Source of the DNA: an uncultured virus (IMG/VR IMGVR_UViG_3300026472_000008)
Lineage: Duplodnaviria > Heunggongvirae > Uroviricota > Caudoviricetes > Crassvirales
Strand: one strand, 5' to 3'
Virus record (IMG/VR): IMGVR_UViG_3300026472_000008
DNA: 30,978 bases
The notes beneath the pieces are model-generated. The model made no database searches. It saw nothing but the letters and a program-made list of their open reading frames with translations, and was not told where the DNA came from. Positions 2,990-25,875 of the stretch are shown here, piece by piece. A program made the position numbers and the translations under genes. Numbering within the stretch: the first letter of the stretch is position 1; the number at the start of each line of letters is the position of its first letter.

Positions 2990-3083
2990 GCCGTTTATAG
3001 CTGATTGTAGGGATTAATATTCTGACGGTATATAATGTGATCGGATATGAGGCTTATATCCCTACAGGCAAGCTAATGCGGTC
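2990..3083. repeat. Long imperfect intergenic inverted repeat
   Basis: GCCG..TAGCT..TGTAGGGAT pairs with ATCCCTACA..AGCTA..CGGT; inner TCTGA/TCGGA stem. Confidence 0.6.
3059..3072 (+). repeat. Dispersed motif copy (short variant TCCCTACAGGCAAG)
   Basis: Read directly; lacks 2 nt relative to the 16-mer consensus. Confidence 0.65.
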
Positions 3084-3165
3084 AAAACCTACAATCTGGC
3101 ACAAACAGTATATATAATAATGATGCTCTAAATGTTAGGTAAACATGTTATTGCTGATTTTGCTA

Positions 3166-3196
3166 TTGCTATTAATCGTGCTAAATGTTATAATTG
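3166..3196 (+). promoter_or_regulatory. Candidate Bacteroidota sigma70-type promoter for the scaffold/capsid unit
   Basis: TTG (3166-3168), 20 nt spacer, TATAATTG (3189-3196; one mismatch to TAnnTTTG), downstream of a terminator and about 30 nt before the ATG. Confidence 0.45.
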
Positions 3197-3227
3197 TGTT
3201 CATATTCGATAACTTAATAAAGATAAA

Positions 3228-4559
3228 ATGGATTTTGGATTTGGTGGTAATGGAGGCGATAAAGGTGGTAATCAACCTGCTCCTAACACGAACAACACCA
3301 GTGTAGAAACTACTGACCTAAGTGGTGGTACTTCTACTACTGACGCAAATGGTAATCCTATTACTAACATTAATGACCCAAATGCTAACGGAGATAATCC
3401 CGGTGGGAAAACTAATGATGGTGACGGAAATGTAACTACAGGTAAAGAGGGAGAACAAGGAGCAGATTCTAATAAAGAACAAGGTAAAACTACCGAAGTT
3501 CTTTTTAATGATTTAGCTGTTGGTTCTATTCTTGAAGTAGGTGAAGAGAAATACACAGTTGGTGCTAATGGAGATATTCTTAAAGCTGACGGTTCTGTAT
3601 TTAAACCAGTAGGGGAAGTTAAAGCTTGGATGGATTCTATGGATGTTATTCCTGATGAAGAAAATCAAGTGTCTATCGCTACTATCCAAAAAACAGTAGG
3701 TATTGAGCTTACTGATGAAAATAATCAACCTATTGTATTTGATAACACTCCTGAAGGTGTTAGTGCATATGTTGAAGCTGTTCTTGAAGCTGGACGTGAT
3801 GAACATTACGAACAAGCTGTTAATAATCTTTTTACTGAATATCCCTTTATGAGTGACATGATTAATTATTATGTTGCTAATGGTAAAAATCTTGATGGTT
3901 ATAACGAAGTTAAAGATCGTTCTTCTGTCATTATTGATGATGCTAACGAGTCACAACATGAATCTATTATTCGAATGGCTTGGTCAGAACAAGGTAGGAA
4001 AGGTGATGTAGAATCATATATTGCTTATCTTAAATCTTCTGGTATTCTATTAGCTACTGCTAAAGATGAACTTAGTGGATTACAAGAGTCTGACAAAGAA
4101 GCTCAAGAAGAAAGAGCTACTAAAGCTCAAGAAGCTGAAAATGCTCGTATAGCTAACAATAAACAATACTGGGATGGAGTTAAGAAAACTATTGATAGCA
4201 AATCCATTGCTGGTTATACTATTCCTGATAATATCATTGTTAGTAGAAACGGTCAAAAGATTAGTACTACTCCTAATGAATTTTTTAAATATCTTTCTGA
4301 AAAGGATCAAAATGGTCAAACAGCTTATCAGAGAGAACGTGCTGCACAAGATGTTAAAGCTAAAACGGAAGATGATATTCTTCGTGCATATCTTCAATTT
4401 ACTGGAGGTTCTTATTCTAATTTAGTAGATATGGCTATTAATAAAACTAACGTTACCAAACTTAGACAGACTAGCCAACAAAGATCTAATAACTCTATTA
4501 AAATAACTAAGCCTGCAGCTACCCCTGCCAAAGGTGGAAATATAGACCTTGGTTATTAA
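3228..4559 (+). CDS. Putative capsid scaffolding protein
   Basis: 443 aa; disordered G/N/T/D-rich N-terminus, acidic helical body; lies between portal and MCP as in crAss-like capsid modules. Confidence 0.65.
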   Translation: MDFGFGGNGGDKGGNQPAPNTNNTSVETTDLSGGTSTTDANGNPITNINDPNANGDNPGGKTNDGDGNVTTGKEGEQGADSNKEQGKTTEVLFNDLAVGSILEVGEEKYTVGANGDILKADGSVFKPVGEVKAWMDSMDVIPDEENQVSIATIQKTVGIELTDENNQPIVFDNTPEGVSAYVEAVLEAGRDEHYEQAVNNLFTEYPFMSDMINYYVANGKNLDGYNEVKDRSSVIIDDANESQHESIIRMAWSEQGRKGDVESYIAYLKSSGILLATAKDELSGLQESDKEAQEERATKAQEAENARIANNKQYWDGVKKTIDSKSIAGYTIPDNIIVSRNGQKISTTPNEFFKYLSEKDQNGQTAYQRERAAQDVKAKTEDDILRAYLQFTGGSYSNLVDMAINKTNVTKLRQTSQQRSNNSIKITKPAATPAKGGNIDLGY

Positions 4560-4589
4560 CAATTAATTACTAATTTAACTATTCGTGTT

Positions 4590-6062
4590 ATGTATAAAAT
4601 GCGTACACTTTCTACAGGAAAGTATGAAGATCGTGGCTATTCCAATGAAGAGTCTATTGCTTATCTTCAATTACAGAAACCTGTAGAAATCAATGCTTTC
4701 CTTACCTATAATTATGGTATGGATGATGATCGTTTTCCTTTGTCTTTCATGACTGAGGGTCAAGGTGCTGGCGGTGTTGTTGAAGTTAAAACTGTTCAAT
4801 GGACTTGGTCTACTATGGGTCGTATGAAGTTCACTGATAAGGTTACTTATTTCAATACTGCTAATACTACTCCAGGTAAAGGCGGTGCTGAAATCGAGGT
4901 TCACTTTGAAACTCACTGGTTTATTGAACAATATGGTTTGATTGCTCCTGATGGTGTAACCAAAGTACGTGTTCAAAAAGACCTTGGTGAAAGTGCTTAC
5001 GGTTATGGCTACATTCTGAAATTTAACAGTGCTAACCCTGATGCATTTATTGATCCTGAAATGCTTGCTAAAGGTAAGTATTGGAGTTTATCTGCTCCTA
5101 CAGTTTCTGAGTCGTATTCAAAAGGTAACCGTAGTAACTCTATGGGTCCTGGTAAAATGACTTCTCAACTTGAGTTCCAACGTTATTCTAAAGAAATTGC
5201 TGGTAATCTTGCCAATGTAATTACTGAATATGAGTTCAAGAACAAAGAGGGAGGTAGTTCGAAACTATGGATCAATGAAGAGATGCGCCAGTTCCACTTG
5301 CATATGCGCGTTATGAATGAGGAACGTCTATGGAATGCTGAGTACAATCGTCTTTCTAATGGTGAGATTATGACTCGTGACCATGACAATGGTAAACCTG
5401 TTCCTCATACTTCTGGTATGTTAGAGATTGCTCGTGAGTCTAACTATGATACCTACGGTGAGTATTTAACTCTTAACAAAATCAAACGTACTGTTGGTGA
5501 TGTTGTAGATAAAGATACTGATACCGGTAAAATGGATATTGTATTCATGGGTGGTAAAGGTTTCCTTGAAGATTTTGACGAAGCTATGAAGCTTGATTCA
5601 AAAGAGAACGGTTTCCTTACTCCTCTTGGTGAAAAAGAGATTCAAGGTTCTGGTGATAATTTAGAGTATGGTGCTTATTTCCGTACTTATAAAACAGTAG
5701 ATGGTCACCGTATTACTGCTAAACACTGTTCTTATTTCGATAAAGGTACAGTTGCTGAAGCTGCTAAACAAAACGGTATGATTCACCCTCGTAGTGGTCA
5801 CCCAATTACTTCTCACCAAGGTATCTTTATCGACTTCTCTTCTTATAGCGGAAATCGTAACGTTCGTATGGCTCGCCAAACTGGACAAATCTACAAAGCT
5901 AAAGTACTTAAAGGTATGACCGATGTTCCGGCATCATGGGGTGTTCCAGACAGTAACTTTGTTTCTACTGAAATTGATATGAGTGCATATCACATTAAAT
6001 CTTCTTTAGGGTTACAAGTTGATAACTCTCAAAAGATGTTCTTATTAAGTTGTAAATTATAA
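4590..6062 (+). CDS. Major capsid protein (crAss-like, HK97 fold)
   Basis: 490 aa; N-terminal YEDRGYSNEESIAYL...GMDDDRFPL.F.TEGQG resembles the MCP of p-crAssphage-like phages as recalled; frequent AAC/TTC/CGT/CAC codons suggest high expression. Confidence 0.9.
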   Translation: MYKMRTLSTGKYEDRGYSNEESIAYLQLQKPVEINAFLTYNYGMDDDRFPLSFMTEGQGAGGVVEVKTVQWTWSTMGRMKFTDKVTYFNTANTTPGKGGAEIEVHFETHWFIEQYGLIAPDGVTKVRVQKDLGESAYGYGYILKFNSANPDAFIDPEMLAKGKYWSLSAPTVSESYSKGNRSNSMGPGKMTSQLEFQRYSKEIAGNLANVITEYEFKNKEGGSSKLWINEEMRQFHLHMRVMNEERLWNAEYNRLSNGEIMTRDHDNGKPVPHTSGMLEIARESNYDTYGEYLTLNKIKRTVGDVVDKDTDTGKMDIVFMGGKGFLEDFDEAMKLDSKENGFLTPLGEKEIQGSGDNLEYGAYFRTYKTVDGHRITAKHCSYFDKGTVAEAAKQNGMIHPRSGHPITSHQGIFIDFSSYSGNRNVRMARQTGQIYKAKVLKGMTDVPASWGVPDSNFVSTEIDMSAYHIKSSLGLQVDNSQKMFLLSCKL

Positions 6063-6081
6063 TATAATATAGATTAATTTT

Positions 6082-7269
6082 ATGGGTGAAAATAATACTG
6101 GCGGGAGTGGTACATTTGGTTTTGGTAAACCGAGTACTCCTGCACCTCAACAGACAGATAATTCAACCTCCCCTGTAGAGGGAACCAATAACGAACATGC
6201 AGCTATTACAGAAGCAGCTATGAAAGTTCTTGAAGCTAATGATACAACTCAAAATGAAGATACTTCTTTATCATATACTGACAATAGAAGTGTTACAATA
6301 TCATTAGTTACTAACTATTCGTTATATCGTAGAGCTAACGATAAAGTTATTCCTAAAAAGACTGATTATATTGGAAGTTCTATATCTGCTTCTCGTACTC
6401 TTTCTGCTAATAAAGAAGAGATTGAAACATATTTTCCTACTTTGCTTGGTATTGCTCATAATAATCCTGAGTTTGTTACTAGAATAAAACAGTATTTAAA
6501 TAATATCAGAGCATCTGTTGATGGTAACGGTTTAACTTTTAATACTACTTTTGTTTATAAACATAAGTCAGACTATTATAAAATTGTTGCTCAAGAACAA
6601 GAAATTGAGAATGAGTATAATAGAGTTCCACGTAAAGATACTGCTAGGCTTAGAATTGCTCTTAAAGAGAAGATTACTAAACTTAACAATCTTGAAAGTA
6701 CTAAATATGCTTTTGGTTATCCTTTAGTTCTTGAAGATTATCTTCTTTATCGTCATTGTTTATTATATAACGATGTGGCTAAAGATTTAGCATTTATTAA
6801 TATTGATGCTAATATTAGGTTCTACTTTAAAGATGATCAGAAAGAAGCTGAGAGAGATCGTAAACATCGTAATGATCTTAACAAAGCTAAGGTTAATTAT
6901 GTTTCGTTAATGGGTGATAATGATCTATTTGAAACTGTTTATATCCAATACTTAGTTGATACAGGAGCTCCTGTTATTGCAGGACTTGCTGAGAAACCTA
7001 TTGATAAAGAACGTAAACTCGATCTTTATAGTACTAGTTATCCTGTTAAGTTTAATGAAATGGTTTCTAACAAAGATTCAAGAATTATTGGTACTATTGA
7101 AAAACTTATAGCTCATGGAGAACTTGTTCGTAGTTTACATAATCAGAATATTAATTCTGAGCAAGGTCATTTCATTGGTTCTAATATGAAAGAAGCTGTT
7201 GCTTGGTTTAAATCTCCTGATAATGCTACTATGGTTAATACTTATATTAATCGTTTAAATAATACATAG
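6082..7269 (+). CDS. Conserved crAss-like capsid-module protein downstream of MCP (function unknown)
   Basis: 395 aa clean ORF in the conserved post-MCP position; disordered N-terminus. Confidence 0.6.
   Translation: MGENNTGGSGTFGFGKPSTPAPQQTDNSTSPVEGTNNEHAAITEAAMKVLEANDTTQNEDTSLSYTDNRSVTISLVTNYSLYRRANDKVIPKKTDYIGSSISASRTLSANKEEIETYFPTLLGIAHNNPEFVTRIKQYLNNIRASVDGNGLTFNTTFVYKHKSDYYKIVAQEQEIENEYNRVPRKDTARLRIALKEKITKLNNLESTKYAFGYPLVLEDYLLYRHCLLYNDVAKDLAFINIDANIRFYFKDDQKEAERDRKHRNDLNKAKVNYVSLMGDNDLFETVYIQYLVDTGAPVIAGLAEKPIDKERKLDLYSTSYPVKFNEMVSNKDSRIIGTIEKLIAHGELVRSLHNQNINSEQGHFIGSNMKEAVAWFKSPDNATMVNTYINRLNNT
6168..6183 (-). repeat. Dispersed 16-bp motif TCCCTCTACAGGGGAG (reverse orientation)
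   Basis: + strand CTCCCCTGTAGAGGGA is the exact reverse complement of 25101-25116. Confidence 0.85.
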
Positions 7270-7270
7270 T

Positions 7271-7957
7271 ATGAACATTTCGGAAATGCACACTGCATTT
7301 CGAACCATTGGTCAACAAATGGGTATGCAACTTATTCGAGGTATTCTTCCAGAGAGTATAGATACATATCTAAATAGTGCTATCAATGAAAAAGTTAGAA
7401 GTGTAGTTATTATGAACGCTTCGACTGTGTTTAGAGACAGAGTTGCAATTCAAGATAATTCTATTTCTCCTATTAATAGTATAAGAACTCTTGTAACAAA
7501 GGGTTCTTTACCTATTGGTAGTATTGTTACTGATGACGAATATTACTCGATCGATGTATCAGGTATTAATAATGTCATGTATTATACTTCATTTCGTGTT
7601 AAATATGTTAATGATAAAAAGAGAAGAGGAACTAGATTTATAGAGAATGATAAACTTGACGATACTCGTTCTGATTATTGTAATCGTGAATCTTGGGACT
7701 ATCCTGTCGTTACCATGAATGTGGATGTAAGTAATAAGGAAATAGTAGATCTTTATATTGGTGAAACTACAAAGACTCCTGAAAAACTAGAACTTGGTTA
7801 TATTAAAAATCCTAAGATTGTTAAGTATAGTGCAAATTCTGGTTCAGCTGTTAGTTGTGATCTTCCAGTTTATTTGCATGATGAGATTGTCCAAATGGCT
7901 GTAGAGAAGTTTTTTAAATCTATTGGTGCTACTACTAAACCTGTAACTCGTAATTAA
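7271..7957 (+). CDS. Putative tail ring / head-tail connector protein
   Basis: 228 aa; MNISEMH..F, ID.YLN.A, YIKNP and CDLP.YLHDEIV.MAV motifs typical of crAss ring proteins. Confidence 0.7.
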   Translation: MNISEMHTAFRTIGQQMGMQLIRGILPESIDTYLNSAINEKVRSVVIMNASTVFRDRVAIQDNSISPINSIRTLVTKGSLPIGSIVTDDEYYSIDVSGINNVMYYTSFRVKYVNDKKRRGTRFIENDKLDDTRSDYCNRESWDYPVVTMNVDVSNKEIVDLYIGETTKTPEKLELGYIKNPKIVKYSANSGSAVSCDLPVYLHDEIVQMAVEKFFKSIGATTKPVTRN

Positions 7958-7980
7958 AATAATAATTAAAATTTTACACT

Positions 7981-8868
7981 ATGCGTAATTTTCTTTTAGC
8001 TGGTACCGCAGCTTATACTGCGGCTGCTAGTATTCCCCTTGTTGCTGCTGGTGCTGTAGGTGTTTACTATAAAGTAGACGGTATAGATACTGTAACAGCT
8101 ACTGGTGTAGAAGTTAAAGATATGGCCGATTTGGTATTAGGTAGAACTTCCGCTTTAGGTGGACCTGTTATCCTTCCAATTCATAAACATAACTTCTCTT
8201 ATGTTAAGAGTGTTTATATAGCTTCTACTAAGTTTGTAGCTACTACTACCATTCCTACTCCTACTGAAATTGGTGATTATTCTGTAATCATTACCTTAAA
8301 AGGAGTTAAGTTTAATGAGCGTAGTAATTGGACACCAACTGTTCATGCCAGAACTGCTAGTCAGTACACTGCTAATACTTTAGCTGCTGCATTAGCTGTA
8401 CAAATTAACAATAATACTGTAAGTCATGGTATTATTGCTACAGTATCTGGTGCTACAATTACTTATACTGCTAGTAATTTCGGTGTAGATTATGCTCTTA
8501 CTGGAGCTGATAAATTAACAGGTCTTGCAGTTACTTATACTACTCGTGGTTTACCTGCATTGAATGATGCAGCTTATATCCGCGATCTAGCTAATAAAGC
8601 AGCTGCCGATAAAGGATTTAATTATACTTGGACTGATGACGTTGCGTTATTATATCCTAATTATGATCAAGATCCTTTAGCTCAACCTTCTGCTACTGAT
8701 GTTGGTTATACTGTATTTACTCTTCGTTTTGCTGTACCTCGTAAAGTTAAAACTGTAGATGAAGTTGTGAACCAAATTGTACAAGTTGCTTTCCCAACTG
8801 GGGCTGCAGGAATTGCTACCTTTGAAACTGTTATGACAGGATTAGATGGTACTTATGTAGAGCCTTAA
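7981..8868 (+). CDS. Putative auxiliary capsid protein
   Basis: 295 aa, A/T/V-rich beta-type composition; last gene of the capsid unit before a strong terminator; synteny. Confidence 0.6.
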   Translation: MRNFLLAGTAAYTAAASIPLVAAGAVGVYYKVDGIDTVTATGVEVKDMADLVLGRTSALGGPVILPIHKHNFSYVKSVYIASTKFVATTTIPTPTEIGDYSVIITLKGVKFNERSNWTPTVHARTASQYTANTLAAALAVQINNNTVSHGIIATVSGATITYTASNFGVDYALTGADKLTGLAVTYTTRGLPALNDAAYIRDLANKAAADKGFNYTWTDDVALLYPNYDQDPLAQPSATDVGYTVFTLRFAVPRKVKTVDEVVNQIVQVAFPTGAAGIATFETVMTGLDGTYVEP

Positions 8869-8892
8869 TAACAATTTATTTCATTAATTTTT

Positions 8893-8939
8893 AAGAGGGT
8901 TGTTGATATTAATATTATTAATATTAATAACCCTTTTTT
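8893..8939 (+). terminator. Rho-independent terminator ending the capsid unit
   Basis: AGGGTTGTTGATATTAAT (8896-8913) pairs with ATTAATATTAATAACCCT (8917-8934, two G-U), followed by TTTTT. Confidence 0.85.
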
Positions 8940-8943
8940 CGTT

Positions 8944-9519
8944 ATGAATCAGATAGAACTAATCAATGATGCCCTTAAACAGGGTATAGCGCCTGCCATT
9001 GTAGTAGCTATTTATTTAATTATTACTAAGATTGCTGATAATAAGAAAGAGACAAATCAAATAAAACTTAGCAATGATGTTATACAATCTATTAGCGTTA
9101 TAAGTGATTTTCTTAGAGATTTTACTAAGAATATTATTGATAAAGAAAAAGATAAATGTAAGAATGCAATAGAAGATTCTATGTTTTCTACAGGTATGCG
9201 TCTTGTAAGTTTTGTGTCTACTACTATTATTAATAATCATATTGATGCCAACAAAGATACTATATTAACTAATATAAGTAATATAGTTAATTCTGAATTC
9301 TATAGTGTTTATTCTACATTATCAATGTATAAGATTAATGGTGTAGTTGTATCTGACTATTTAGATAAACAATGGATGGCTACTATTGAAGAGGATATGA
9401 TTTCTGTTATTTATAGTAGTTTACTAGATAAAGATGAAAAGATATTATCTTTTTCTAATAAGATTACTATTAAGTTTCAAAACTATGTTACTTTTATTAC
9501 TAATCAAATAATTAAATAG
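8944..9519 (+). CDS. Single-pass membrane protein, possibly holin/antiholin-like
   Basis: 191 aa; N-terminal hydrophobic segment GIAPAIVVAIYLIIT followed by lysines and a helical soluble domain. Confidence 0.5.
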   Translation: MNQIELINDALKQGIAPAIVVAIYLIITKIADNKKETNQIKLSNDVIQSISVISDFLRDFTKNIIDKEKDKCKNAIEDSMFSTGMRLVSFVSTTIINNHIDANKDTILTNISNIVNSEFYSVYSTLSMYKINGVVVSDYLDKQWMATIEEDMISVIYSSLLDKDEKILSFSNKITIKFQNYVTFITNQIIK

Positions 9520-9523
9520 TCTC

Positions 9524-9754
9524 ATGAATATAGTTAAAAACGATAATTATTTTAAAATAGATAATACAGTTCTACCTTTAAATAGTTGTATAGTTAGTCA
9601 AGATGGAGATATTATTACTCTATATACTGTTGCTAATAGTTTTAGAATGAATATTGATCTTACTAATACTACATTAGATGGTATTGCTGCTACAGATATT
9701 AATGAGATAATGGACTATCTTATTGCTAATTGTTTTACTAATGGAGCAATTTAA
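9524..9754 (+). CDS. Small hypothetical protein
   Basis: 76 aa, tightly packed on the coding strand with normal codon usage. Confidence 0.6.
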   Translation: MNIVKNDNYFKIDNTVLPLNSCIVSQDGDIITLYTVANSFRMNIDLTNTTLDGIAATDINEIMDYLIANCFTNGAI

Positions 9755-9806
9755 AAAGTCTATTATACTAACTACAACTCGTACTAGTGGATCAGTCATT
9801 GTAATA

Positions 9807-9820
9807 TCCCTACAGGGGAG
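9807..9820 (+). repeat. Dispersed motif copy (short variant TCCCTACAGGGGAG)
   Basis: Read directly in the 9755-9874 gap. Confidence 0.7.
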
Positions 9821-9874
9821 GTTATACTAATAGTTATTTACTAGGTCAAGAAAGTACTTTATAATAAATATAAT

Positions 9875-10651
9875 ATGTCTATAATACAAAAGTTAAAACG
9901 TAACGAAGAACTTAGTAGTACTATTCAAGTTATTGTTACTGATGAAACTGGAGTATATAATTCTACAAACACTAATGGATATGGGGGAGCTAATGGCAAT
10001 CCCATATCTAAGTTTGAGAAGTATATATTTGAGTTAGTTAATCTTTATACTGGCAATAAATATCGTCAAACTCAAAGTGATAATTTAGCCAATACTACAG
10101 AATTCCATAATCCTACTGTTCCTAGAATAGCTAACAAAGAGAATGTAACTATTGATGCTGGAAACTTTAATTTGAATAACTTCGAAGATGGTTTATATAA
10201 ACTATATATGAATGTTCAATTAATTGATAGTTATACTTGTACTCCTAATGTTGGAACTGATGTTATATCAAATGTTACAAATGCTCAATATATCTATGAT
10301 AATTTCAAAACTTTAATAGGAGGTTCAGATATATATAAAATACAAGGTATTACAGGAAATAATTTAATAGTAGATAGACCTATTATTAATTATTTTCCTA
10401 GTTTAAAACCTTGCATGTCTACATCTATTAATTTTATCATTTCTGACCAACTTAATGATGATATAGATTGTGCAATTGCTAAAACATTAGACTCTTGTAA
10501 TTGTGATAATTCTAAACTTGTTAATTCTGTTTCTGAAATTCAATTATATTTTTGGGCTATGAATCGTAGTATTGATGAAAATGATATTTTTCAAGCTTAT
10601 GAATACTTTCAGATAGCTAAAGAATTATCAGCTTCACTTAACTGTTACTAA
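9875..10651 (+). CDS. Putative tail hub / fibre-attachment protein
   Basis: 258 aa; D.TG.Y....N..GYG and DGLY motifs, beta-rich body, helical C-terminus with C..CNC; precedes the fibres. Confidence 0.45.
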   Translation: MSIIQKLKRNEELSSTIQVIVTDETGVYNSTNTNGYGGANGNPISKFEKYIFELVNLYTGNKYRQTQSDNLANTTEFHNPTVPRIANKENVTIDAGNFNLNNFEDGLYKLYMNVQLIDSYTCTPNVGTDVISNVTNAQYIYDNFKTLIGGSDIYKIQGITGNNLIVDRPIINYFPSLKPCMSTSINFIISDQLNDDIDCAIAKTLDSCNCDNSKLVNSVSEIQLYFWAMNRSIDENDIFQAYEYFQIAKELSASLNCY

Positions 10652-10652
10652 T

Positions 10653-10889
10653 ATGATTGATAATAGCAATAATACTTTTGATAAAGTTTATGATAAATTA
10701 ATTGTTGTAGCTCAAAGTAAAATAAAGAACATAGTTAAACTTAGACAATTAGGTAAAAGTATTGACTATAAAACAATTAAATTGCTTAATCTTTATATTA
10801 GATATTTAGAGTCTACAAAGGCTTCTAAATATAGATATTTTACTATAGCAGGTTTAAATAATATATCTAATTTTTTAAATACTTTGTAA
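10653..10889 (+). CDS. Small helical protein, possibly second hub subunit
   Basis: 78 aa; 1 nt after the previous stop and TAATG-coupled to the fibre gene. Confidence 0.45.
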   Translation: MIDNSNNTFDKVYDKLIVVAQSKIKNIVKLRQLGKSIDYKTIKLLNLYIRYLESTKASKYRYFTIAGLNNISNFLNTL

Positions 10890-12973
10890 TGTGTAAAAGA
10901 TGTAATAACTCTTCTTGTCGAGGTGGTTGTGGAACTACTAGACAAATTGTTAATAATAATAATTCTATAGGTCGTGACGGAGAATCCGCTTACGACATTG
11001 CTGTTCGTAATGGTTTTGAAGGAACTGAAGAAGAGTGGTTAGAATCTCTTAAAGGAGTAGTAGGTGCTAAGAATGGAGTTAGTATAGATACTTCTGATGA
11101 TAAGCTTAAACTAGGTGGAGAATTAACTGAAGATACTTTTGTTGGTTCTTATCTTGGTAGTAAGATCATGTTAGGGTTATCTCCTAGTACTAAAACTGCA
11201 TCTATAACTTTAAATGGAGATACTTATACAGCTTCTTTAGGAATTGGTCTTACAGCTAATACTGAATTTCCTAATCAGAGAGTCCCTCAACTTCTTCGTA
11301 ATCAAGGTTTTAATGCTACTGGTATTGAAATTCTTCAACAAGGGGCTTTAGTTACTGATGGTATATTAGGAAAAGGACTTGGTGATGCTGCTGACTATTC
11401 TGCCAATAAGACTGAGTTTAGTTACGTAACTAAGCAGATGTTAGATGCTGCTACGGGAAGTGGTATAACTGCTAGTAGAGGATTATCTAAAATAGGTTCA
11501 GATATTAAACTTGGTGGTACTTATTTAGATGAGGAATATATTACTGTTAGACCTTTTACTAATATTGGAGGTAAACTTAATTTAGATAATCGTAACTCTG
11601 AATTATCTGTATTTGATACTCCTGAACAAAATAATTATTCTTCTATTGGTATTACTGATATGGGTCTTCGTATGAGATATAGACGTCCTGATTTTAAGGA
11701 ACAATCTATTCTTATTCAAGAAACAAGTCTTGGTGATGGTTCTAGAGAGATGGTTGTTGTTGACAGTATAAATGAGAAAGGTTTGGGAGATAAAGCTGAT
11801 TATTCTGCTAGTAAAACTCAATTTTCTTATGTAACTAAACAAATGTTAGATGACGCTACTAGCGGAGGAGGCGGAGGAGTTACTGCTATTAATGGTCTTA
11901 ACAAATCTGGTAGTGATATTAAACTAGGCGGACCTTTAACTGAAACTACTGAGATTGGAGGTGATGCTGTTACTATTAATTTAAATCCTATAGGTGCAGC
12001 AAGTATGTCTACTAAGACTGGAGCTGGTCCTACTATGAGTATTAATGGTATGATCTTAGATGGTGATAGTATAGCATTTGTTAGACTTAAACCAGTAGGA
12101 GCTATTAAAGAAGCCTTAGAGATTAATACAGATAATGGTATTACATTTGTAGATGATGCTAATAATAGAGGTGCTGGTGATAGAGCAGATTATTCTTTAA
12201 ACAAAACTGATTATAGTTATGTTACAAAGAAAATGCTTTATGATGCTATTGCTGGAGGAACTATTGGTAGTTGGACTACAATACCTGGTAAATCCAGTGT
12301 TCTTCAATATGAGGGAATTGATATTGAATATAAGTTAGATTTTGCTTTAGTATCTAGTAAAGCTATGGTTCATTTAGTTGGACAATTTATTATTCAAGAT
12401 ACTTATGCTGCTAATTCTATTTTAGTTGGCACATTACCTGCTAATGCTAGACCTAAATCAGTTTGGAAAAGCGCTGTATTTTGTGATAATGTTTTATGTT
12501 ATCTAACAATTGATACTACAGGTATAATTACTATTACTACTGTTAGTGGAAATCTTCCAGTTTATGCTGGAAATAATGATACTAATGTATTTAATATAGA
12601 TATATTCTTTAAACCAGTTATTGCTTCTGATTATCCTTTTGTAATAGCTAGTGTTACAGATGTTCCTGCTGATCCACAAGTTGGAGGTACTAATCAATAT
12701 AAGTTTAGAGTGAATATTGGATCTGCTATTAGTGAAGATTTAACTCTTAATTTTAGTTGTAATTATGATGCAGTAGGAGGAGGTAGCTCTACTTATAGTG
12801 GTTCAATTACTTTACCTGCCGGAGAAACATCATTTACTACTCCTGATTTTGAAATTACTGATGCTAGTCCTGCTAGTTCAATAGATGGTCTTACAATTAA
12901 TAGTGGATCTCCTGTTAGTGGTTCTACTGTTACTGATATGTCTACTGGAACTCCTCGAACTTTAATATATTAA
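10889..12973 (+). CDS. Tail fibre / receptor-binding protein A
   Basis: 694 aa; Cys-rich N-terminus, GESAYDIAVRNGFEGTEEEWLESLKG motif, three ADYS..KT.[FY]SYVTK.ML repeats, C-terminal GTLP..ARP head and Ig-like domain. Confidence 0.8.
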   Translation: MCKRCNNSSCRGGCGTTRQIVNNNNSIGRDGESAYDIAVRNGFEGTEEEWLESLKGVVGAKNGVSIDTSDDKLKLGGELTEDTFVGSYLGSKIMLGLSPSTKTASITLNGDTYTASLGIGLTANTEFPNQRVPQLLRNQGFNATGIEILQQGALVTDGILGKGLGDAADYSANKTEFSYVTKQMLDAATGSGITASRGLSKIGSDIKLGGTYLDEEYITVRPFTNIGGKLNLDNRNSELSVFDTPEQNNYSSIGITDMGLRMRYRRPDFKEQSILIQETSLGDGSREMVVVDSINEKGLGDKADYSASKTQFSYVTKQMLDDATSGGGGGVTAINGLNKSGSDIKLGGPLTETTEIGGDAVTINLNPIGAASMSTKTGAGPTMSINGMILDGDSIAFVRLKPVGAIKEALEINTDNGITFVDDANNRGAGDRADYSLNKTDYSYVTKKMLYDAIAGGTIGSWTTIPGKSSVLQYEGIDIEYKLDFALVSSKAMVHLVGQFIIQDTYAANSILVGTLPANARPKSVWKSAVFCDNVLCYLTIDTTGIITITTVSGNLPVYAGNNDTNVFNIDIFFKPVIASDYPFVIASVTDVPADPQVGGTNQYKFRVNIGSAISEDLTLNFSCNYDAVGGGSSTYSGSITLPAGETSFTTPDFEITDASPASSIDGLTINSGSPVSGSTVTDMSTGTPRTLIY

Positions 12974-17638: not shown

Positions 17639-17647
17639 TCTCTACTT

Positions 17648-18595
17648 ATGCTCCCTGATGTCAATTTAAAAAGTTATTATCTTCAATATATTAGTAATGC
17701 TAATTCTGATATTGTAAAATATAAGAATAGTTTAGATTATACTATGAAGATGCTCGAAGAACTATATAATTATATTGAAGAAAATGTAGATGCTGTTAAA
17801 GTTGCTTATTCAATTAAACTCGATAGTTATGAACAAGAGTGGAATAAGAAAGTTTATAATCCATCTGAAATTTTATACACTAAAGTAGTTAAATTACATT
17901 CTAATGTAAAGGATGATAAAAATAAGATTATACTAATTCAAATTATTAAGTATTGTAATATGCTTCGTGATATTGAAAAGTATAATAAACTTATTAATTT
18001 AGCTAAGATTCGTAAGAACATGAAATTTACTGTTTATAGTTCTTATGTTATTAAGTATTATAATAAAGTGCATAAAGTTGTGCTAGAAGGCATGGGTTAT
18101 GAATTTAGCTATGGCATAGGTACTTATTGTATTAATCATTGGAAAATAGATAAAGATAAGCAGACTAAAACTAAAAGACTTGACTTTGCTGCTACTAATG
18201 CTAAAAAAAGAGAATTAGAAGCTAAAGGTACTAGACTTTATAATGACGCGGAAGCTATTTGGTATAAAGAAAGAAGTATACCTTATGATGCTGTTGATTA
18301 TAGAGTTTATAAACAAGAGAGTTCTTTTTATGATTTTACTTTTATTAAATCTCCTATATTTTATAGAACTCCTTTCAATTATAAAAGGACTGAATATGTT
18401 TCTACTAAATATAGAGGAATGTCTTATACTGAAATGGCAGATAAGTTATGTAAGACTTATGATGACATTTATAATTTACAAGTTGATATTAAGTATAAAC
18501 TTAATATACTTCTACATAAAGATCCAACTAAGTATTTAAATTTTATTCGTAATGCAGACCAATGTAAATACAAACGTGGAGCGCATAATAGCTAA
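17648..18595 (+). CDS. IHF/HU-like DNA-binding domain protein (crAss-like conserved)
   Basis: 315 aa; segment VHKVVLEGMGYEFSYGIGTYCI resembles the HU/IHF helix-beta start; lies before the tail tubular gene as in crAss-like phages. Confidence 0.55.
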   Translation: MLPDVNLKSYYLQYISNANSDIVKYKNSLDYTMKMLEELYNYIEENVDAVKVAYSIKLDSYEQEWNKKVYNPSEILYTKVVKLHSNVKDDKNKIILIQIIKYCNMLRDIEKYNKLINLAKIRKNMKFTVYSSYVIKYYNKVHKVVLEGMGYEFSYGIGTYCINHWKIDKDKQTKTKRLDFAATNAKKRELEAKGTRLYNDAEAIWYKERSIPYDAVDYRVYKQESSFYDFTFIKSPIFYRTPFNYKRTEYVSTKYRGMSYTEMADKLCKTYDDIYNLQVDIKYKLNILLHKDPTKYLNFIRNADQCKYKRGAHNS

Positions 18596-19394
18596 GATTG
18601 ATAATGATTATAATATTGATAATAGCGATTGGATACCACGTGTTGCTGCTTGGGTCATTGATGGACTTTCTCAGCTAGATGCTTTACGTACATCAAGGAA
18701 GAGATATAAACTTCCTGTTAATTGTAGGATTGCATATTCTAATCTTCCTATCAATAGTCCTAATCTTATTGTTGCTGATTGTAATGGTTGTAAGATTAAT
18801 CCAAAGAAAGGAGCGGATTCTTGTGGATGTGACCCCTCTACAGGCAAGGGGATAGATTTTACTTCTAATACTATTGATACTACCTATAATAGTCAAGCAT
18901 CTTGTGCTCCTGCTGAAGTTATTTCGGAAGAAATATATACTAAAGATAAAGCTGCTAGACATAGAGTTTATGAAGTTCCAAAAACTCCTATTCCTAGAGA
19001 CTATGTTCTTGTTGACAATAATAAACTTGAATTAAATTTTGATACTGATTATATATTTATAGAAACTGATTCTGTAGATACAGTATGGAGTGATGCTTAT
19101 GAAGAGTATTTACCTGTAATTCCAAATGTAGGTATTCTTATTGAAGCTATTGCTTATTATTGTTTATATAAAATACTATGTCGAGGAACTAAACATCCTG
19201 TATTTAATTTAGCTGCTAGTCAATATGGTACTAATCCATTTTATGAATGGAAGACTCTTAAAGATCAAGCTAAACGTGCTGTAATTATTGATGCACAAGG
19301 TAATATATTAGAGAAAGATGGTGGTATATTTAAATCTACTTTCTTTATTTATACTTTTAGACCTAGAGGAAATGAATATAGTTCCCAAGCTTAA
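18552..19394 (+). CDS. Tail tubular / ring protein (P22 gp4-like position)
   Basis: 280 aa; ERIIAKI.ND, W..D.L and P.IP....LIEAI.YY motifs; directly precedes muzzle gene. Confidence 0.7.
   Translation: MQTNVNTNVERIIAKIDNDYNIDNSDWIPRVAAWVIDGLSQLDALRTSRKRYKLPVNCRIAYSNLPINSPNLIVADCNGCKINPKKGADSCGCDPSTGKGIDFTSNTIDTTYNSQASCAPAEVISEEIYTKDKAARHRVYEVPKTPIPRDYVLVDNNKLELNFDTDYIFIETDSVDTVWSDAYEEYLPVIPNVGILIEAIAYYCLYKILCRGTKHPVFNLAASQYGTNPFYEWKTLKDQAKRAVIIDAQGNILEKDGGIFKSTFFIYTFRPRGNEYSSQA
18833..18848 (+). repeat. Dispersed 16-bp motif CCCCTCTACAGGCAAG
   Basis: 15/16 match to the reverse complement of 23484-23499. Confidence 0.85.
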
Positions 19395-22300
19395 TTTGAA
19401 CAAACATGCCAAAGATAGTGAAAATCTATCTCTTGTTAATGGGTTGAATATGAAGTTATCTCATGACCTTAGTTGTCTTACATCTGAGGAGAGTATTAAG
19501 GAGAATACTTTTATTCATAATTATCTTTTAAATTATTATGGTAATTTGATTACTTATAAGATTGTAGGTCTTATTGCTTGTAATAATGAAATTGTAATTA
19601 TAGTTAAACCTAGTGATACTGAATTAGATTCTGATATTTTTAGATATCAAGAACCTATTAATGATAATATTGAAGATATGTCTGTAGTTTATGGAGGTAT
19701 TTCAAGTATTAATAGGTTTAAATATCATGGAGGTTCTATTAAAGGAACTTTCACTTATAATGTTGAAAATAGTTTAATAGTTGCTATTAGTGAATATGGT
19801 GTTGTAGGTATTAAAATACCTTTACGTACTATTAATCTTGGTAACTATGCTGACCCAACTGTTTATAATGATAAAAATATTAGTGATGCAAAACTAGCTA
19901 CTTCACCAGAACTTAAAGTTCCTACTGTTAGTAACTTAGATTATGTTGAGGGTAGTGCTTATAAAGGATGGTATTATGTTTTCTTACGTTATAAGATAAA
20001 CAGTGTTGATTATACACAATGGCATTCTATTGGATTTCCTATTTATATAGATACTATAGAGCATTTCCAAATTATTAGATATTGTTATAATAGAGATACT
20101 CATTTTATTGGAGGACCTCTACCAGCTATTGTATATCCACCTCATCCAGATGATGGTTATGGCGCAGGATGTTCTGATTACTTTAGTAATACTAGTGAGA
20201 TTGCAAAAGAGACTTTTAAAGTTGATATGACATTTGATGCTAGTATTGATTATGATAAATATCAAGTTGGTGTTGTTTGTACTTCTAAGTCTTATAATAA
20301 AGCATTTAGAACATCTGATATTATCTTATCTGCTGCTGGAACTTCTCGTACTGTTGAATTTATTTTAGATAATAAATCTTTAGTTGAAGCTACTACTGGA
20401 GAATTTATTATTGATAATTTTAATTATTTTAATAGTAAAAATGTTATTAATTATCAGAACAAATTATATATAAGTAATTATACTGAAGATAATGCTAATA
20501 ATGATGATATTTTACAATCTAAAATAGATGATATTGATGTTTCATTATCTTATGATAATATTAGAGATTATGGATTAGTTTATGATACTGCTCTAATGAA
20601 TGGTAGACATGATAATTCTCCTAATCAATATGATACATATCGTATTATTGAGATACCTATGCCTACTTATCTTAATGTATCTGAAAGTCAATTGATTACT
20701 ATAGAAGCTACTGGTTCTCCTACTAAAACTGTACCTGCGGGTCAAGTTTATATTATGACGACTGGTTCTCTTCCTGATTTTATTTATATAGAAGTTAGAG
20801 AACCAGGACCATTGGGTAGTGTTACACTTACTAAATATAGTACTACTCCAACTTCTCCTCCTACATATCTTACTGTAGTTAATAATATTAACTATGTAGA
20901 TACCAGAATGTTGCTCAATCAAAATGATTTGGCTATGAATGGAGGGATGAGATATATTAATGCTAATAGAAATTATAAAGATCGTAAGGAAAATAGTACT
21001 TTAATACCAGGAGAAGTTTATAATTTCTTTATACATTTTGTTAATAAGTATAATCATGCTACTAATGGTTATAAACTCATTAATAAAACTAAATGGGCTA
21101 CTTATGATGATCTTCTTACTGAAATAATACCTGTACCTTTTAATGTTAAAATTAGTGGTACAAATGTTACATATTATGCTGCAGTTCCAGTTGATAATAA
21201 TGTTTCATACTTTGATTTATCAAGTAATGAATATGTAATTAATACTGAAAATGTAAGATATTACAGAAGTTATACTGAAAATTCTGGAGTTAATCCTCAA
21301 TTATTAGATAGAGTAGAACTTATTAATGAAGACGATATTAGGAAAGTATTTGTTGATAATTTTTCATCTTATACTAGTGATAAGTTTGACACTATTAAAT
21401 GGTATCAAGTATCGTACGGACCTGGCTATCAAAGCTTTCATTTATTTATTAATAATAATGGTGAGCGTTTATTTAAGATACCTACTGCTGAAACTTTCTT
21501 ATTTAATTATGATGGTTTTCCGGGTGAACTTACTCCATTTAAAACTTATAATACTCATGTCATTAACAGAATCATTGCAAGTAATGTAGAGATTCCTGAA
21601 GGTTATGATGGGTTTTATATTTCTTATGAGAAGTTTGAAGCTCAACAAAGAGTAACTGGACTTCTTACTAGAAATGATTTTCGTAATCAAGATTATATTA
21701 ATGGAGTTTATCATGAGACCGCAAATGATTTTAAATCAGATAAGATGTTCTTTTATAGTGGTCAATATGATATTGCTGATACTATTAAGTTAGATTATAA
21801 TGTAATGCGTATTGAAGCTGTTAATCCTTATAAGAGGGATGATATGCCTGAATGGGATTACATGCAAAGGAATGCTTATTTTAGTTTTTTACATGATATG
21901 AATAAGCCTCAAGTTGATAGACATTTTGATACTATTAATAGGGTTTATCCAATGCCACAATATAAGATTGCAGTTGCTGATAGCGCTGTAGATAATAGAA
22001 TGGCTTTAGGAACTGGTTTAGAAATTAAAGATTCTTATAACTTATTTCCTAATTATTATGTAAGTAATGATGCTGCTGCAAATAATAAGATTAAATTATA
22101 TAGAGTTACTTTACTTAATACTACTAGAGATATTTATATGTCTAATAGTAAAACTCTTATAAGAATGTCTGAAACTATATATCGTTCAGAAGGTTCTCCA
22201 ATAGATACTAAATATTCTACAGGAGTTATACTTAACGGATATAATGGCCATCATACTTATGATGGTTTTGGCATTTATAGTAATCGCGGTTTGATTTTCA

Positions 22301-23811
22301 ATACTGCAAACAATATTGCTAAGAAATTTAATAATAGTACTGATTATTATATGGGAGCTGTTCCTGCTAGTAGTCCTCATACTTGGCAAAATGATTATCC
22401 TTTTTATGCTTATGTTCAGATGCCTATTTGTACTGATATATTCTATGAGAGTAAATCGTATAAAAATGAACCTAAACCTATTGCTTTTTTGGTTAAGCTT
22501 TTAAATGAACAACAATTTTTTAGTAAAGGTCAGATGGTTACTCCTGCTAATACTATTGATTTGTTTGAAAATAAGCAAGGTAGCGCAGATCAATTTAATC
22601 CTAAAACTTATACTCAATTCAGAGATGATTTAGTATCTATTGAAGTGTTTGATAAAACTCTACGTAGAAGTGCTGTTATTCAAGATGAATCTCGTATTAA
22701 TGGATGGAGAACATTTCCTGTTGAAGCTTATAAAAATATTACTGAAAATAAAGGTAAGATAACTAATTTAGTTGGTATTGGATATATACTTCTAGTACAT
22801 ACTGAACATAGTTTATTCCAGTTTAATACTGATGCTACTTTAAAGACTAAAGATCAAGATATTCAATTATTACAACCTGATGCTTTTGATGTTCAATATA
22901 AAGAAGTATTTACATCGGACAAAGGTTTTGGAGGATTGCAAGATGATAAATCTTATCTTATCGATACTTTTGGTTATATGTTCTATAGTAATGATACTAA
23001 GCGTATTTATATATTTGATGATGGTAAGTTAGATTTTGCTGATGAAGATATTATTCATTGGTTAGATAAATATGCTCCATTTAATGTTAGAATGGCTAAT
23101 GATAAATTTAACTATAGAATATTATTTAAGTTTGATTATATTATTAATACTGAAACTAAACATACTGTAATTAGTTATAGTTATAAAACTAAGTCTTTTA
23201 TTAATCAACATAGTTATTACTTTGATGAAGCTTTTAATACTAAGACTGGTTTGTATTTACAATGTACCAATGAACATGTAGGTTGTTCTTTACATAGTTT
23301 TAATTATAATAAAGCTGACTATTGTAGATATGATAATATTCTAGGAAGTCTTGGAACTTCTGTTCGTAAAGAATCTAAACTTAGTATTATTTGTAATAAC
23401 AATTTTGATATAGTTAAGTTCCTTGAATTTATTAGTTATAAACTTACTAAGCATATATTTGATGCTAATATTGATTATACTCACTTGCCTGTAGAGGGAA
23501 CAGTCCAACCTTATGCCGGATCAGTTCTTTCTGTATATAATGATCAAGTCAATACTAATCCTCTTGATATTGCAGTAAATACTGAGTTAGACAAAAATCC
23601 TTTTGGTGCATTTGATAAACCTTATTGGGACTTAGGTGTTTGGAACTTTAGTTATTTACGTAATAATATAAGTAATCTTCCTAATGGTGTTTCAGCTAGT
23701 GAAATGTCTAGAATATTTGGTAATTATTTTATTATTGAATTTACTTTTGATAATATTGATAATCGTCGTATTGATTTTGAACAATTAAACTATAATTTAT
23801 CAGAGTTATAA
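19372..23811 (+). CDS. Tail stabilization / muzzle protein
   Basis: About 1479 aa; probable start ATG 19372 (MNIVPKLNLNK) rather than 19318; LIPGEVYNFFIHFV, KGKITNL and HTEHSLF motifs, beta-propeller-like C-terminal half; synteny. Confidence 0.78.
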   Translation: MNIVPKLNLNKHAKDSENLSLVNGLNMKLSHDLSCLTSEESIKENTFIHNYLLNYYGNLITYKIVGLIACNNEIVIIVKPSDTELDSDIFRYQEPINDNIEDMSVVYGGISSINRFKYHGGSIKGTFTYNVENSLIVAISEYGVVGIKIPLRTINLGNYADPTVYNDKNISDAKLATSPELKVPTVSNLDYVEGSAYKGWYYVFLRYKINSVDYTQWHSIGFPIYIDTIEHFQIIRYCYNRDTHFIGGPLPAIVYPPHPDDGYGAGCSDYFSNTSEIAKETFKVDMTFDASIDYDKYQVGVVCTSKSYNKAFRTSDIILSAAGTSRTVEFILDNKSLVEATTGEFIIDNFNYFNSKNVINYQNKLYISNYTEDNANNDDILQSKIDDIDVSLSYDNIRDYGLVYDTALMNGRHDNSPNQYDTYRIIEIPMPTYLNVSESQLITIEATGSPTKTVPAGQVYIMTTGSLPDFIYIEVREPGPLGSVTLTKYSTTPTSPPTYLTVVNNINYVDTRMLLNQNDLAMNGGMRYINANRNYKDRKENSTLIPGEVYNFFIHFVNKYNHATNGYKLINKTKWATYDDLLTEIIPVPFNVKISGTNVTYYAAVPVDNNVSYFDLSSNEYVINTENVRYYRSYTENSGVNPQLLDRVELINEDDIRKVFVDNFSSYTSDKFDTIKWYQVSYGPGYQSFHLFINNNGERLFKIPTAETFLFNYDGFPGELTPFKTYNTHVINRIIASNVEIPEGYDGFYISYEKFEAQQRVTGLLTRNDFRNQDYINGVYHETANDFKSDKMFFYSGQYDIADTIKLDYNVMRIEAVNPYKRDDMPEWDYMQRNAYFSFLHDMNKPQVDRHFDTINRVYPMPQYKIAVADSAVDNRMALGTGLEIKDSYNLFPNYYVSNDAAANNKIKLYRVTLLNTTRDIYMSNSKTLIRMSETIYRSEGSPIDTKYSTGVILNGYNGHHTYDGFGIYSNRGLIFNTANNIAKKFNNSTDYYMGAVPASSPHTWQNDYPFYAYVQMPICTDIFYESKSYKNEPKPIAFLVKLLNEQQFFSKGQMVTPANTIDLFENKQGSADQFNPKTYTQFRDDLVSIEVFDKTLRRSAVIQDESRINGWRTFPVEAYKNITENKGKITNLVGIGYILLVHTEHSLFQFNTDATLKTKDQDIQLLQPDAFDVQYKEVFTSDKGFGGLQDDKSYLIDTFGYMFYSNDTKRIYIFDDGKLDFADEDIIHWLDKYAPFNVRMANDKFNYRILFKFDYIINTETKHTVISYSYKTKSFINQHSYYFDEAFNTKTGLYLQCTNEHVGCSLHSFNYNKADYCRYDNILGSLGTSVRKESKLSIICNNNFDIVKFLEFISYKLTKHIFDANIDYTHLPVEGTVQPYAGSVLSVYNDQVNTNPLDIAVNTELDKNPFGAFDKPYWDLGVWNFSYLRNNISNLPNGVSASEMSRIFGNYFIIEFTFDNIDNRRIDFEQLNYNLSEL
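23484..23499 (-). repeat. Dispersed 16-bp motif TCCCTCTACAGGCAAG (reverse orientation)
   Basis: + strand reads CTTGCCTGTAGAGGGA. Confidence 0.85.
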
Positions 23812-23814
23812 ATA

Positions 23815-24483
23815 ATGGTACGTAAACAAGTTAAAAAGAATGGTCGCGATAAGAAATTTATTGGCGCCATTATAGGAACTGTTGCAGGTCTTGCAGGTAG
23901 TTTGATAGGAGCTAAGAAACAACGTAAAGCTGATGAAGAAGCCTTTCAAGCACAACAAGCTGAACAGAATAGAATTGATAGTGTTAAAGCAGCACAAAAT
24001 CTTACATCTAGTTATGCTGATCAAAGTTATGTAGATGACTATAAGAAAAAGATAGTTCTTAAAGCTGGTGGTAAAGTTTCTACTAAAGATAAAGTTAGGA
24101 ATTATACTGTTGGTAAAAAGAAGAGTGATATAGAAGCTTATAAAGCAGGTGGTCGTGCTAAGTATGTAGATGGTGGTACAACTGATGAGAGTAGTTCAGA
24201 TAGTATTGACTTTGGAGCAGAAGCTACAGATGCCATTGGAGGACTTACTAGTTTAGCTACTAATCTATTTACCAAACCTAAGGTTAATAAAATGATTAAA
24301 AAAGCTGATGGTTTTGCATTTACTCCATCTACTGCTACTGTTGCTCCTCAAAGTTATCAATTAGATATTAATGGTCAACCTATTACTACTGTTAATCCTG
24401 TTTCTCCAATGATTAAACCCGATGTTAATGCTCCGGCTATTGCTAAGATGGGGACAAAGAAAGTAAGTAAAAAACTTTGGTAG
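23815..24483 (+). CDS. Putative cargo/ejection protein with glycine-rich hydrophobic helix
   Basis: 222 aa; FIGAIIGTVAGLAGSLIG segment, Lys-rich; directly after muzzle. Confidence 0.6.
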   Translation: MVRKQVKKNGRDKKFIGAIIGTVAGLAGSLIGAKKQRKADEEAFQAQQAEQNRIDSVKAAQNLTSSYADQSYVDDYKKKIVLKAGGKVSTKDKVRNYTVGKKKSDIEAYKAGGRAKYVDGGTTDESSSDSIDFGAEATDAIGGLTSLATNLFTKPKVNKMIKKADGFAFTPSTATVAPQSYQLDINGQPITTVNPVSPMIKPDVNAPAIAKMGTKKVSKKLW

Positions 24484-24571
24484 ATAGCTGTTTTAGGCTA
24501 TCTATTAGCGTTTAGTATCGAAGTGGATTAATTATATCATTATATAATATACTATCGTTAGAAGCGCTAAT
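24481..24571. repeat. Intergenic stem-loop plus long imperfect inverted repeat
   Basis: TAGATAGC/GCTATCTA (24481-24504); ATTAGCGTTT/AAGCGCTAAT (24504-24571); TAGTAT/ATACTA; central TGGATTAATTATATCA. Confidence 0.55.
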
Positions 24572-24597
24572 TTGAAGTCATAATAATTAATAATAAT

Positions 24598-25875
24598 ATG
24601 AAATCAAATAAAGTTTTATATCCCAAAGTTGTTAGAGGTGGAGCTGCTATTCCACTAGGTAATAACTTTTATTATATGCAAGGTAAAAAACATTCTCAAG
24701 GAGGTATTGATATTGGTCAAAATGACAATACTGGAATTGAAGTTGAGGATGAAGAGATTATGCATGTTACTCCTAAAGAAGCTAAAATATATAGTGCTGT
24801 TCCTTTTCTTAATGGTAAATCACCTGCTCAACATATATTGGATGGTGCTAATCCAAATACAGTATTTAATGCTCAGCAAAAGTTTAAGAAAGACAATGAT
24901 ATTAATGATGATGGAACTAAAAAGAAAAATGGAGGCAAAGTAATGAATAGAAATAAATATGCTACAGGAGGTCCTAAAAAACCTAATAGAAATATTTTAG
25001 GTACTTTGCCTGCAAGTGCTAATATACGTATTGATAATAGTACTTCTTTATTAGATGATCCAGATGCTCGTATGTTAGCAGATGATACTATCGTAACGAA
25101 TCCCTCTACAGGGGAGCTACCAAATAGATTCAATCGTACTATGAATTATATTGGTAATACTATCGATGGTATATCTGGTGATGTTGAAGCTTATTTTGAT
25201 AATAATCCAGGAGTTGCTGGTGATTATTTAGGAGTTGCTTCTAATATTATTGGAGGAGTTGCTGCAAATAAGATTAACAGAAAGATGTTAGATAAGATGC
25301 AATATTCTCCTGCTCCTATTGGACGTACTGCTGCTAAACTTAAAACAACTATTAATATTAATCCTCAATTAGATAAGATGCGAGAATCTGCTGCAGCTTA
25401 TGAAAGAGATATTGATAATAATACTGCTAGTTCAAGAGTAGCTCTTTCTAGAAAACAAAGAGGTAGATTAGCTACTCAATTTCAGACTAATGAACTTTAT
25501 GGAAATAAAGAAAACATTGAGACTGATTTAATTAATAAAGATCGTCTTAATCAGCAAGAAGTTGGAAATGCTAATGCTGCCGACTATAATCGTTGGGCTG
25601 AAGGTAAAGCTTCATTTAATAATGCTATTAATGAAAAACGTTCTGAAAATAATATTGGTTTAATTGATACAATTAATTCTGGTGTTCAAGATTTAATAAC
25701 TCGAGGTGAAAAGCGTAATGCTAGTCGAGATAATATGTTAACTATTGCTGCTGCAAGTCCTAATGTTAATCCTCGTATTCTTAAAGATATGGGTGTTAGA
25801 TCAATTACTGATAAAATGATTCAAGATTGGGAAAAAGCTAATTCTAAAAAAGGCAAGAAGTCTAACGGTAAATAA
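24598..25875 (+). CDS. Putative cargo/ejection protein
   Basis: 425 aa; N-terminal GKKHSQGG...EVEDEE domain, glycine-rich helix YLGVASNIIGGVAA, N/Q/A-rich coiled-coil. Confidence 0.6.
   Translation: MKSNKVLYPKVVRGGAAIPLGNNFYYMQGKKHSQGGIDIGQNDNTGIEVEDEEIMHVTPKEAKIYSAVPFLNGKSPAQHILDGANPNTVFNAQQKFKKDNDINDDGTKKKNGGKVMNRNKYATGGPKKPNRNILGTLPASANIRIDNSTSLLDDPDARMLADDTIVTNPSTGELPNRFNRTMNYIGNTIDGISGDVEAYFDNNPGVAGDYLGVASNIIGGVAANKINRKMLDKMQYSPAPIGRTAAKLKTTININPQLDKMRESAAAYERDIDNNTASSRVALSRKQRGRLATQFQTNELYGNKENIETDLINKDRLNQQEVGNANAADYNRWAEGKASFNNAINEKRSENNIGLIDTINSGVQDLITRGEKRNASRDNMLTIAAASPNVNPRILKDMGVRSITDKMIQDWEKANSKKGKKSNGK
25101..25116 (+). repeat. Dispersed 16-bp motif TCCCTCTACAGGGGAG
   Basis: Exact reverse complement of 6168-6183. 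Confidence 0.85.

Follow-up and report, generated by a model that had tools for sequence, protein, structure and literature searches.

A dispersed DNA word in an uncultured crAss-like virus proves to be the local spelling of a signal that spans a clade, comprising the Intestiviridae, including p-crAssphage, and wider relatives within the Crassvirales. The window in which the word was found is the whole analysed stretch of 30,978 nucleotides (IMG/VR record IMGVR_UViG_3300026472_000008), and it holds six copies. The word is real and selected. The signal is ~16-27 bp long and consists of a pyrimidine tract, a TAC-like triplet, a G-run and a lineage-specific tail, and all copies within a lineage are respelled together. 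The window is an Intestiviridae virion region. It represents the virion-gene arm of a Crassvirales phage (portal gene 482-2911, major capsid gene 4590-6062), and its capsid protein is 71-77% identical to those of p-crAssphage, cr3_1 and ctbg_1, the records of which are classed in the Intestiviridae, subfamily Crudevirinae. Genome-wide statements are drawn from the genomes of relatives.

The 11-mer core of the word is the top dispersed 11-mer of the window, seen four times against 0.01 expected under an order-4 Markov model. A codon-aware null, in which the open reading frames (ORFs) of the window were resampled synonymously with the window's own codon usage over 3000 rounds, yielded 0.109 coding copies of the core on average and never more than 2, against 4 seen. 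A looser search (12-mer, at most 2 mismatches) returned 4 matches against 1.17 expected, and 5 of 100 shuffles reach 4. Clear enrichment is therefore confined to the near-exact form. The initial annotation had placed six copies in the window, and their coordinates and strands all match the sequence (Table 1). Its consensus is exact in three of the four full copies but fails at the first base of the other, at 18833, which begins with C rather than T. The coding copies encode SPVEG, PSTGK, LPVEG and PSTGE, as had been claimed. The window's spelling contains an A and is dimorphic, with a GG and a CA form. Successive copies on the plus strand lie 6.7, 9.0 and 6.3 kb apart and the two on the minus strand 17.3 kb apart, and there is no copy between 9820 and 18833.

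The window's exact spelling is patchy among relatives: there are 10 copies in the genome G001, 9 in G004 and 1 in three others, any match at all in 6 of 40 further relatives, and 21 single-copy matches in IMG/VR. De novo counting revealed that every genome has its own version of the word. A generalised 12-mer is present in all 28 relatives (2-36 copies each), with its reversed control at zero in all of them, and per-genome matrices recovered 18-44 copies in each of 25 whole genomes (24 IMG/VR records plus p-crAssphage). These numbers, together with the codon-aware null, uphold the earlier proposal of a genome-wide cis-signal that is constrained as DNA. p-crAssphage has 32 copies of a ~27-bp form, crAss002 has 31 copies, cr8_1 has 27, and Rudgehvirus has 25 in the 80 kb examined of its 90.6 kb. 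The Crevaviridae member cr127_1 carries 10 copies, five per strand, of a different and very conserved ~32-bp word. Related spellings occur in 11-23 copies in five distant IMG/VR relatives (G046, G059, G060, G062 and G073), which were chosen from 45 loci, four of them for showing motif-like words.

A comparable word was not found by contiguous or gapped searches in 10 genomes that represent the Steigviridae, the Suoliviridae and FpV4 (cr272_1, cr6_1, crAss001, phi14:2, cr50_1, Azobacteroides phage, cr85_1, cr116_1, IAS and FpV4), where a very degenerate word is still possible. An 8-mer enriched in crAss001 (35 seen vs 9.8 expected) is not evenly spaced and was not counted as this signal. The same genome has 13 A-runs of at least 10, many directly before start codons. 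In the Azobacteroides phage (AP017903; L284-L288) there is no dispersed word, and primase, polymerase B, helicase and ligase were not found with the queries used. A generic matrix applied to 40 primase-centred loci (11-21 kb) lacked the sensitivity to tell whether the word is present, and other spellings are possible there.

Comparison of orthologous sites, which covered the 6168, 18833 and 23484 sites and the gap between the portal gene and gp75, set nucleotides against peptides and again pointed to the DNA, as sites sometimes flip strand and thereby change the peptide. At 6168, 14 of 26 genomes share both the alignment column and the strand, and 4 have the site in sense orientation, where it encodes a different peptide. 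At 18833 the site is conserved in column and strand in 23 of 24 genomes and flipped in G031, and at 23484 it is conserved in 17 of 26. Of 26 genomes, the window included, 15 have a site between the portal gene and gp75 (10 sense only, 4 antisense only and 1 both). Four-fold degenerate sites are ~7% GC, whereas the word requires rare G/C codons.

The copies are spaced evenly along each strand. Spacing is more regular than random (p<0.05) on 45 of the 50 strands of the 25 whole genomes, although several of these genomes are near-identical and therefore the spacing and pair counts overstate the independent evidence. The median coefficient of variation (CV) of spacing is 0.47 per strand, compared with 0.71 when the strands are pooled. 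Each strand carries 8-23 copies, the strands are balanced, and the median same-strand gap is 6.2 kb (n=650). Gaps below 2 kb make up 5.7% of these (26.7% expected) and gaps above 15 kb 2.8% (9.8% expected). Because spacing is more regular per strand than pooled, the signal is read strand by strand, and the description of the word as orientation-independent in the initial annotation does not hold. Of the 10 strands of the five distant genomes, 6 are regular at p<0.05. One of these genomes (G046:133-59273; L543-L545) is nearly periodic, with sites about every 7.4 kb per strand (CV 0.16 and 0.17), mostly in close opposite-strand pairs.

The sites are indifferent to the direction of transcription. 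Among 706 sites, 528 are coding, 290 of them sense and 238 antisense, and 178 are intergenic; in the early arm, sense and antisense sites number 119 and 100. No polarity toward an origin or terminus and no switch in strand bias was seen, and each gene arm has sites on both strands.

Opposite-strand pairs within 300 bp are in excess (84 vs ~33 expected, 7 of the 84 being one palindromic site in G004 counted twice). Both geometries occur, and the closest pairs lie 22-60 bp apart. Many genomes share a close intergenic pair where the replication arm ends, and the different word of cr127_1 is also paired at the matching place. In p-crAssphage, the pairs 28084/28176 and 95752/95868 lie upstream of two repL genes, and the predicted origin is directly upstream of one repL, according to the accessible part of PMC10983915.

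Table 1. Copies of the dispersed word in the window, with their form, strand and gene context
Copy	Position	Strand	Context
Short, CA form	3059..3072	+	Intergenic, gap between portal gene and p-crAssphage gp75 orthologue
Full, GG form	6168..6183	-	Antisense in ORF 6082-7269 (p-crAssphage gp73 orthologue)
Short, GG form	9807..9820	+	Intergenic, between ORFs 9524-9754 and 9875-10651
Full, CA form, begins with C	18833..18848	+	Sense in ORF 18552-19394 (p-crAssphage gp50 orthologue, annotated there as tail tubular protein)
Full, CA form	23484..23499	-	Antisense near the end of ORF 19318-23811 (p-crAssphage gp49 orthologue)
Full, GG form	25101..25116	+	Sense in ORF 24598-25875 (p-crAssphage gp47 orthologue)

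Around these copies, a terminator-like stem-loop followed by a T-run was noted by eye at 2934-2980 (+), 3' of the portal gene and ~80 bp upstream of the 3059 copy. The IMG/VR record L035:1-4032, which matches residues 1-244 of the window's capsid protein at 100% identity, also has the 3059 copy. An open frame at 28539-30978 (+) runs past the end of the window and is the orthologue of p-crAssphage gp45, annotated there as RNA polymerase-associated. No tRNA was found in the window. In the relative G002, the gene at L115:14464-15204 (-) matches the Tad3 (Thoeris inhibitor) family (E 7e-26).

The bounded intervals on each strand, taken with the indifference to transcription, fit a process in which a single strand serves as template over stretches of kilobases. 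Among the mechanisms weighed, priming may fit the strand-wise bounded spacing best, a preference that we express tentatively. By analogy with plasmid single-strand initiation (ssi) signals, we suggest that the word could be a fixed priming site for the phage's DnaG-fold primase, a reading to which we give slightly less than an even chance. On a strand exposed as template, the word would be recognised by the phage's own primase, which would start a new strand there, perhaps assisted by SSB or by an accessory protein such as gp23. Replication started by recombination from permuted ends could expose either strand as template anywhere, so each strand would need its own array. The regular gap would then represent a limit on the tolerable length of single-stranded template, and the role of the ssiA/ssiB pair of an origin would fall to the conserved pair of opposite-strand sites where the replication arm ends. 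For crAss002, headful packaging and a circularly permuted genome are predicted, in the available text of PMC8042965.

The closest known counterparts are ssiA and ssiB of the IncQ plasmid RSF1010, read by the primase RepB'. As described in the accessible portion of PMC8567376, these are likewise long oriented signals on opposite strands, and the opposite-strand pairs of the crAss word, near an initiator gene and an origin that is itself only predicted, may correspond to them. The same portion describes ssiA and ssiB as occurring once each, 40 nt long and with a defined hairpin, unlike the crAss word with its 18-44 copies and no sign of a required hairpin; their reader is an archaeo-eukaryotic-type primase, while the candidate primase here has a DnaG fold. 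The word would work most like a multiplied ssi signal but falls outside the ssi class on copy number (8-23 per strand). The initial annotation had pointed to an internal dyad. As a required hairpin this is unsupported by mismatch counts: the A faces a C, which is a mismatch, in 21 of 104 sites, compared with 75 of 599 sites where G would form the pair. The C.A mismatch is thus not avoided at the one position tested, and mean folding energies are -1.6 and -1.2 kcal/mol on the two strands.

Among the products of the replication arm are an SF1 helicase, UDG, PolB and ligase, together with RecT, SSB and an SNF2-like protein as annotated in p-crAssphage, and genes for SF1 helicase, PolB, RecT, an SSB-like protein and ligase are present in 24-25 of the 25 genomes. 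The orthologue of gp21, a putative primase, is present in all 25. It has a DnaG-like predicted fold (pLDDT 85; top PDB match 2au3, E 1.1e-6) and, at 397 residues, seems to be without a helicase-binding domain. All complete Crassvirales primases that were aligned (including L103:17919-19109 (+)) carry T(K/S)SxKD or a close variant and are devoid of the usual zinc-binding cysteines, and both traits are common to motif-positive and motif-negative families. T(K/S)SxKD presumably sits where DnaG has its catalytic glutamate motif. A search of PDB sequences with a primase profile gave no match, and so no alignment in which to compare the catalytic residues.

We also asked which proteins diverge in step with the spelling of the motif, a test over 39 families with non-independent pairs that offers a hint only. 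The spelling correlates best with gp23 (r 0.61), followed by PolB, ligase, TerL and primase (0.54-0.57); the poorest correlations are with the major capsid protein, gp71, gp46 and gp22. The gp23 family (for example L169:18620-19225 (+)) is basic, fast-evolving and ~200 aa long, and is encoded between primase and ligase in 25 of 25 genomes. Its predicted fold (pLDDT 80, best Z 6.3) has no clear family, and its BFVD matches are crAss orthologues only. The IHF/HU-like gene at 17648-18595, which had been named as a candidate reader, gained no positive support: its product is without a Pfam or PHROG family, has a sub-threshold Atlas lead to Bac_DNA_binding (0.76), and tracks the spelling weakly (r 0.41, partial r 0.09).

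Gene presence was compared between motif-positive and motif-negative genomes as well. DnaB-like genes turned up in 9 of the 10 motif-negative genomes and in none of the 28 Intestiviridae, nor in cr127_1. An SNF2-like ATPase is present in 11 of 11 motif-positive genomes tested. It marked these genomes perfectly with the first profile, and this distinction was lost on iteration, when 6 of the 10 negatives proved to have a homologue.

Several observations weigh against priming by the DnaG-fold enzyme. Since 9 of the 10 motif-negative genomes encode the primase family as well, it does not explain the distribution of the word. The idea that the signal replaces a lost DnaB was rejected, as all five distant motif-positive genomes encode a DnaB-like protein. 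TerL tracks the spelling as well as the primase does (partial r 0.27), and the genomes compared are not independent. No composition step was seen across the sites at four-fold positions. The usual recognition triplets of DnaG are far shorter than a 16-27 bp word, and the usual Okazaki fragments are shorter than 6 kb. Lastly, the enzyme carries T(K/S)SxKD at the presumed glutamate site and is missing the zinc cysteines, so that its priming activity is only putative.

Less likely is a reading of the copies as nick sites programmed into virion DNA, of the kind known from T5, phiKMV-like and tf/LUZ24-like phages, here on both strands. The nick motifs of T5/BF23, phiKMV-like and tf/LUZ24-like phages, in the accessible text of PMC3517423, are likewise dispersed, oriented words running through genes, at similar positions in relatives, and their function long went unexplained. 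A PD-(D/E)XK nuclease is encoded in 25 of 25 genomes, but its gene tracks the spelling poorly (partial r -0.09). The same text describes those motifs as lying on one strand and having another sequence, in contrast to the crAss word, which is equally frequent on both strands. Moreover, if both members of the opposite-strand pairs 22-60 bp apart were cut, the DNA would break.

Slightly less probable still, in our estimate, is that the copies are duplex binding or loading sites for a phage protein engaged in moving, organising or recombining the genome (the SNF2-like translocase, the RecT pathway, terminase or the IHF-like proteins), comparable to KOPS, Chi or dispersed centromere sites. The word is long and information-rich and seems not to need the hairpin, TerL is among the best trackers of its spelling, and the SNF2-like ATPase accompanies it in every motif-positive genome tested; yet SNF2-like homologues also occur in motif-negative genomes, and the IHF-like gene tracks the spelling poorly. 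KOPS and Chi are polar, with a strand bias that switches at origin and terminus, unlike the crAss word, which lies on both strands in both gene arms without polarity. For plain binding sites one would also expect even spacing over the two strands together, whereas spacing is more even per strand.

We consider it improbable that the copies are promoters for the giant virion RNA polymerase, producing mRNA, antisense RNA or replication primers. The length and asymmetry of the word resemble phage-polymerase promoters, and intergenic copies lean sense (91 vs 56). The phi14:2 enzyme prefers single-stranded DNA, and no early promoter motif is reported for that phage in the available part of 10.1101/2020.03.07.982082. 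Against this stand the 238 antisense copies among 528 coding ones, the strand flips at orthologous sites and the distances to start codons, which are scattered with no fixed value; the word was also not found in phi14:2 or crAss001, both of which have the virion polymerase. The middle and late promoters of phi14:2, as given in the same part of that preprint, are likewise a conserved DNA motif in a Crassvirales genome, but they are host sigma-70-like, sense and upstream of genes in beta-group phages, whereas the crAss word is mostly intragenic and half antisense. As a primer-making signal, such a promoter merges with the priming reading. That the word is a by-product of conserved peptides, codon bias or chance is practically negligible, for although the same short peptides reappear at orthologous sites, this is refuted by the codon-aware null, the 178 of 706 intergenic copies, the peptide-changing strand flips and the empty reversed control, and the demand for rare G/C codons at AT-rich positions also opposes it.

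The word is apparently undescribed in print. Neither motif word occurs in the crAss papers among the 40 listed of 127 literature matches. The signal does not appear in the accessible portions of the literature examined, a set that excludes supplements and most subscription journals (PMC10136315, PMC7886860, PMC8042965, PMC10172136, PMC3517423, PMC8567376, 10.1101/2020.03.07.982082 and PMC10983915); the promoter file of the phi14:2 preprint and the genome supplements lie outside this scope and could bear on novelty. The available text of one review states that the exact replication mode of the Crassvirales is unknown (PMC10136315). It is possible, though we hold it with more doubt than the priming function itself, that the Intestiviridae (p-crAssphage, crAss002) and the wider clade hard-wire a two-strand map of replication starts. 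In such a map, each strand would carry a long private word at intervals of about 6 kb. The reader would be a DnaG-fold primase of unusual make-up, with lysine in place of glutamate and no canonical zinc ligands, or else its partner gp23. Nascent fragments would be fixed and several kilobases long, replication could proceed from any exposed strand independently of an origin, and word and reader would co-evolve in each lineage.

In p-crAssphage, and in the two cultured phages crAss002 of Bacteroides xylanisolvens and Rudgehvirus of B. cellulosilyticus, the word can be located precisely and counted, and it supplies exact coordinates for end-mapping, priming and binding assays. It also explains the recurring short peptides in unrelated crAss proteins as overprinting at the DNA level. 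Any outcome would be new, whether long fixed priming sites for a DnaG-type enzyme, programmed nicks on two strands, or a new genome-handling protein.

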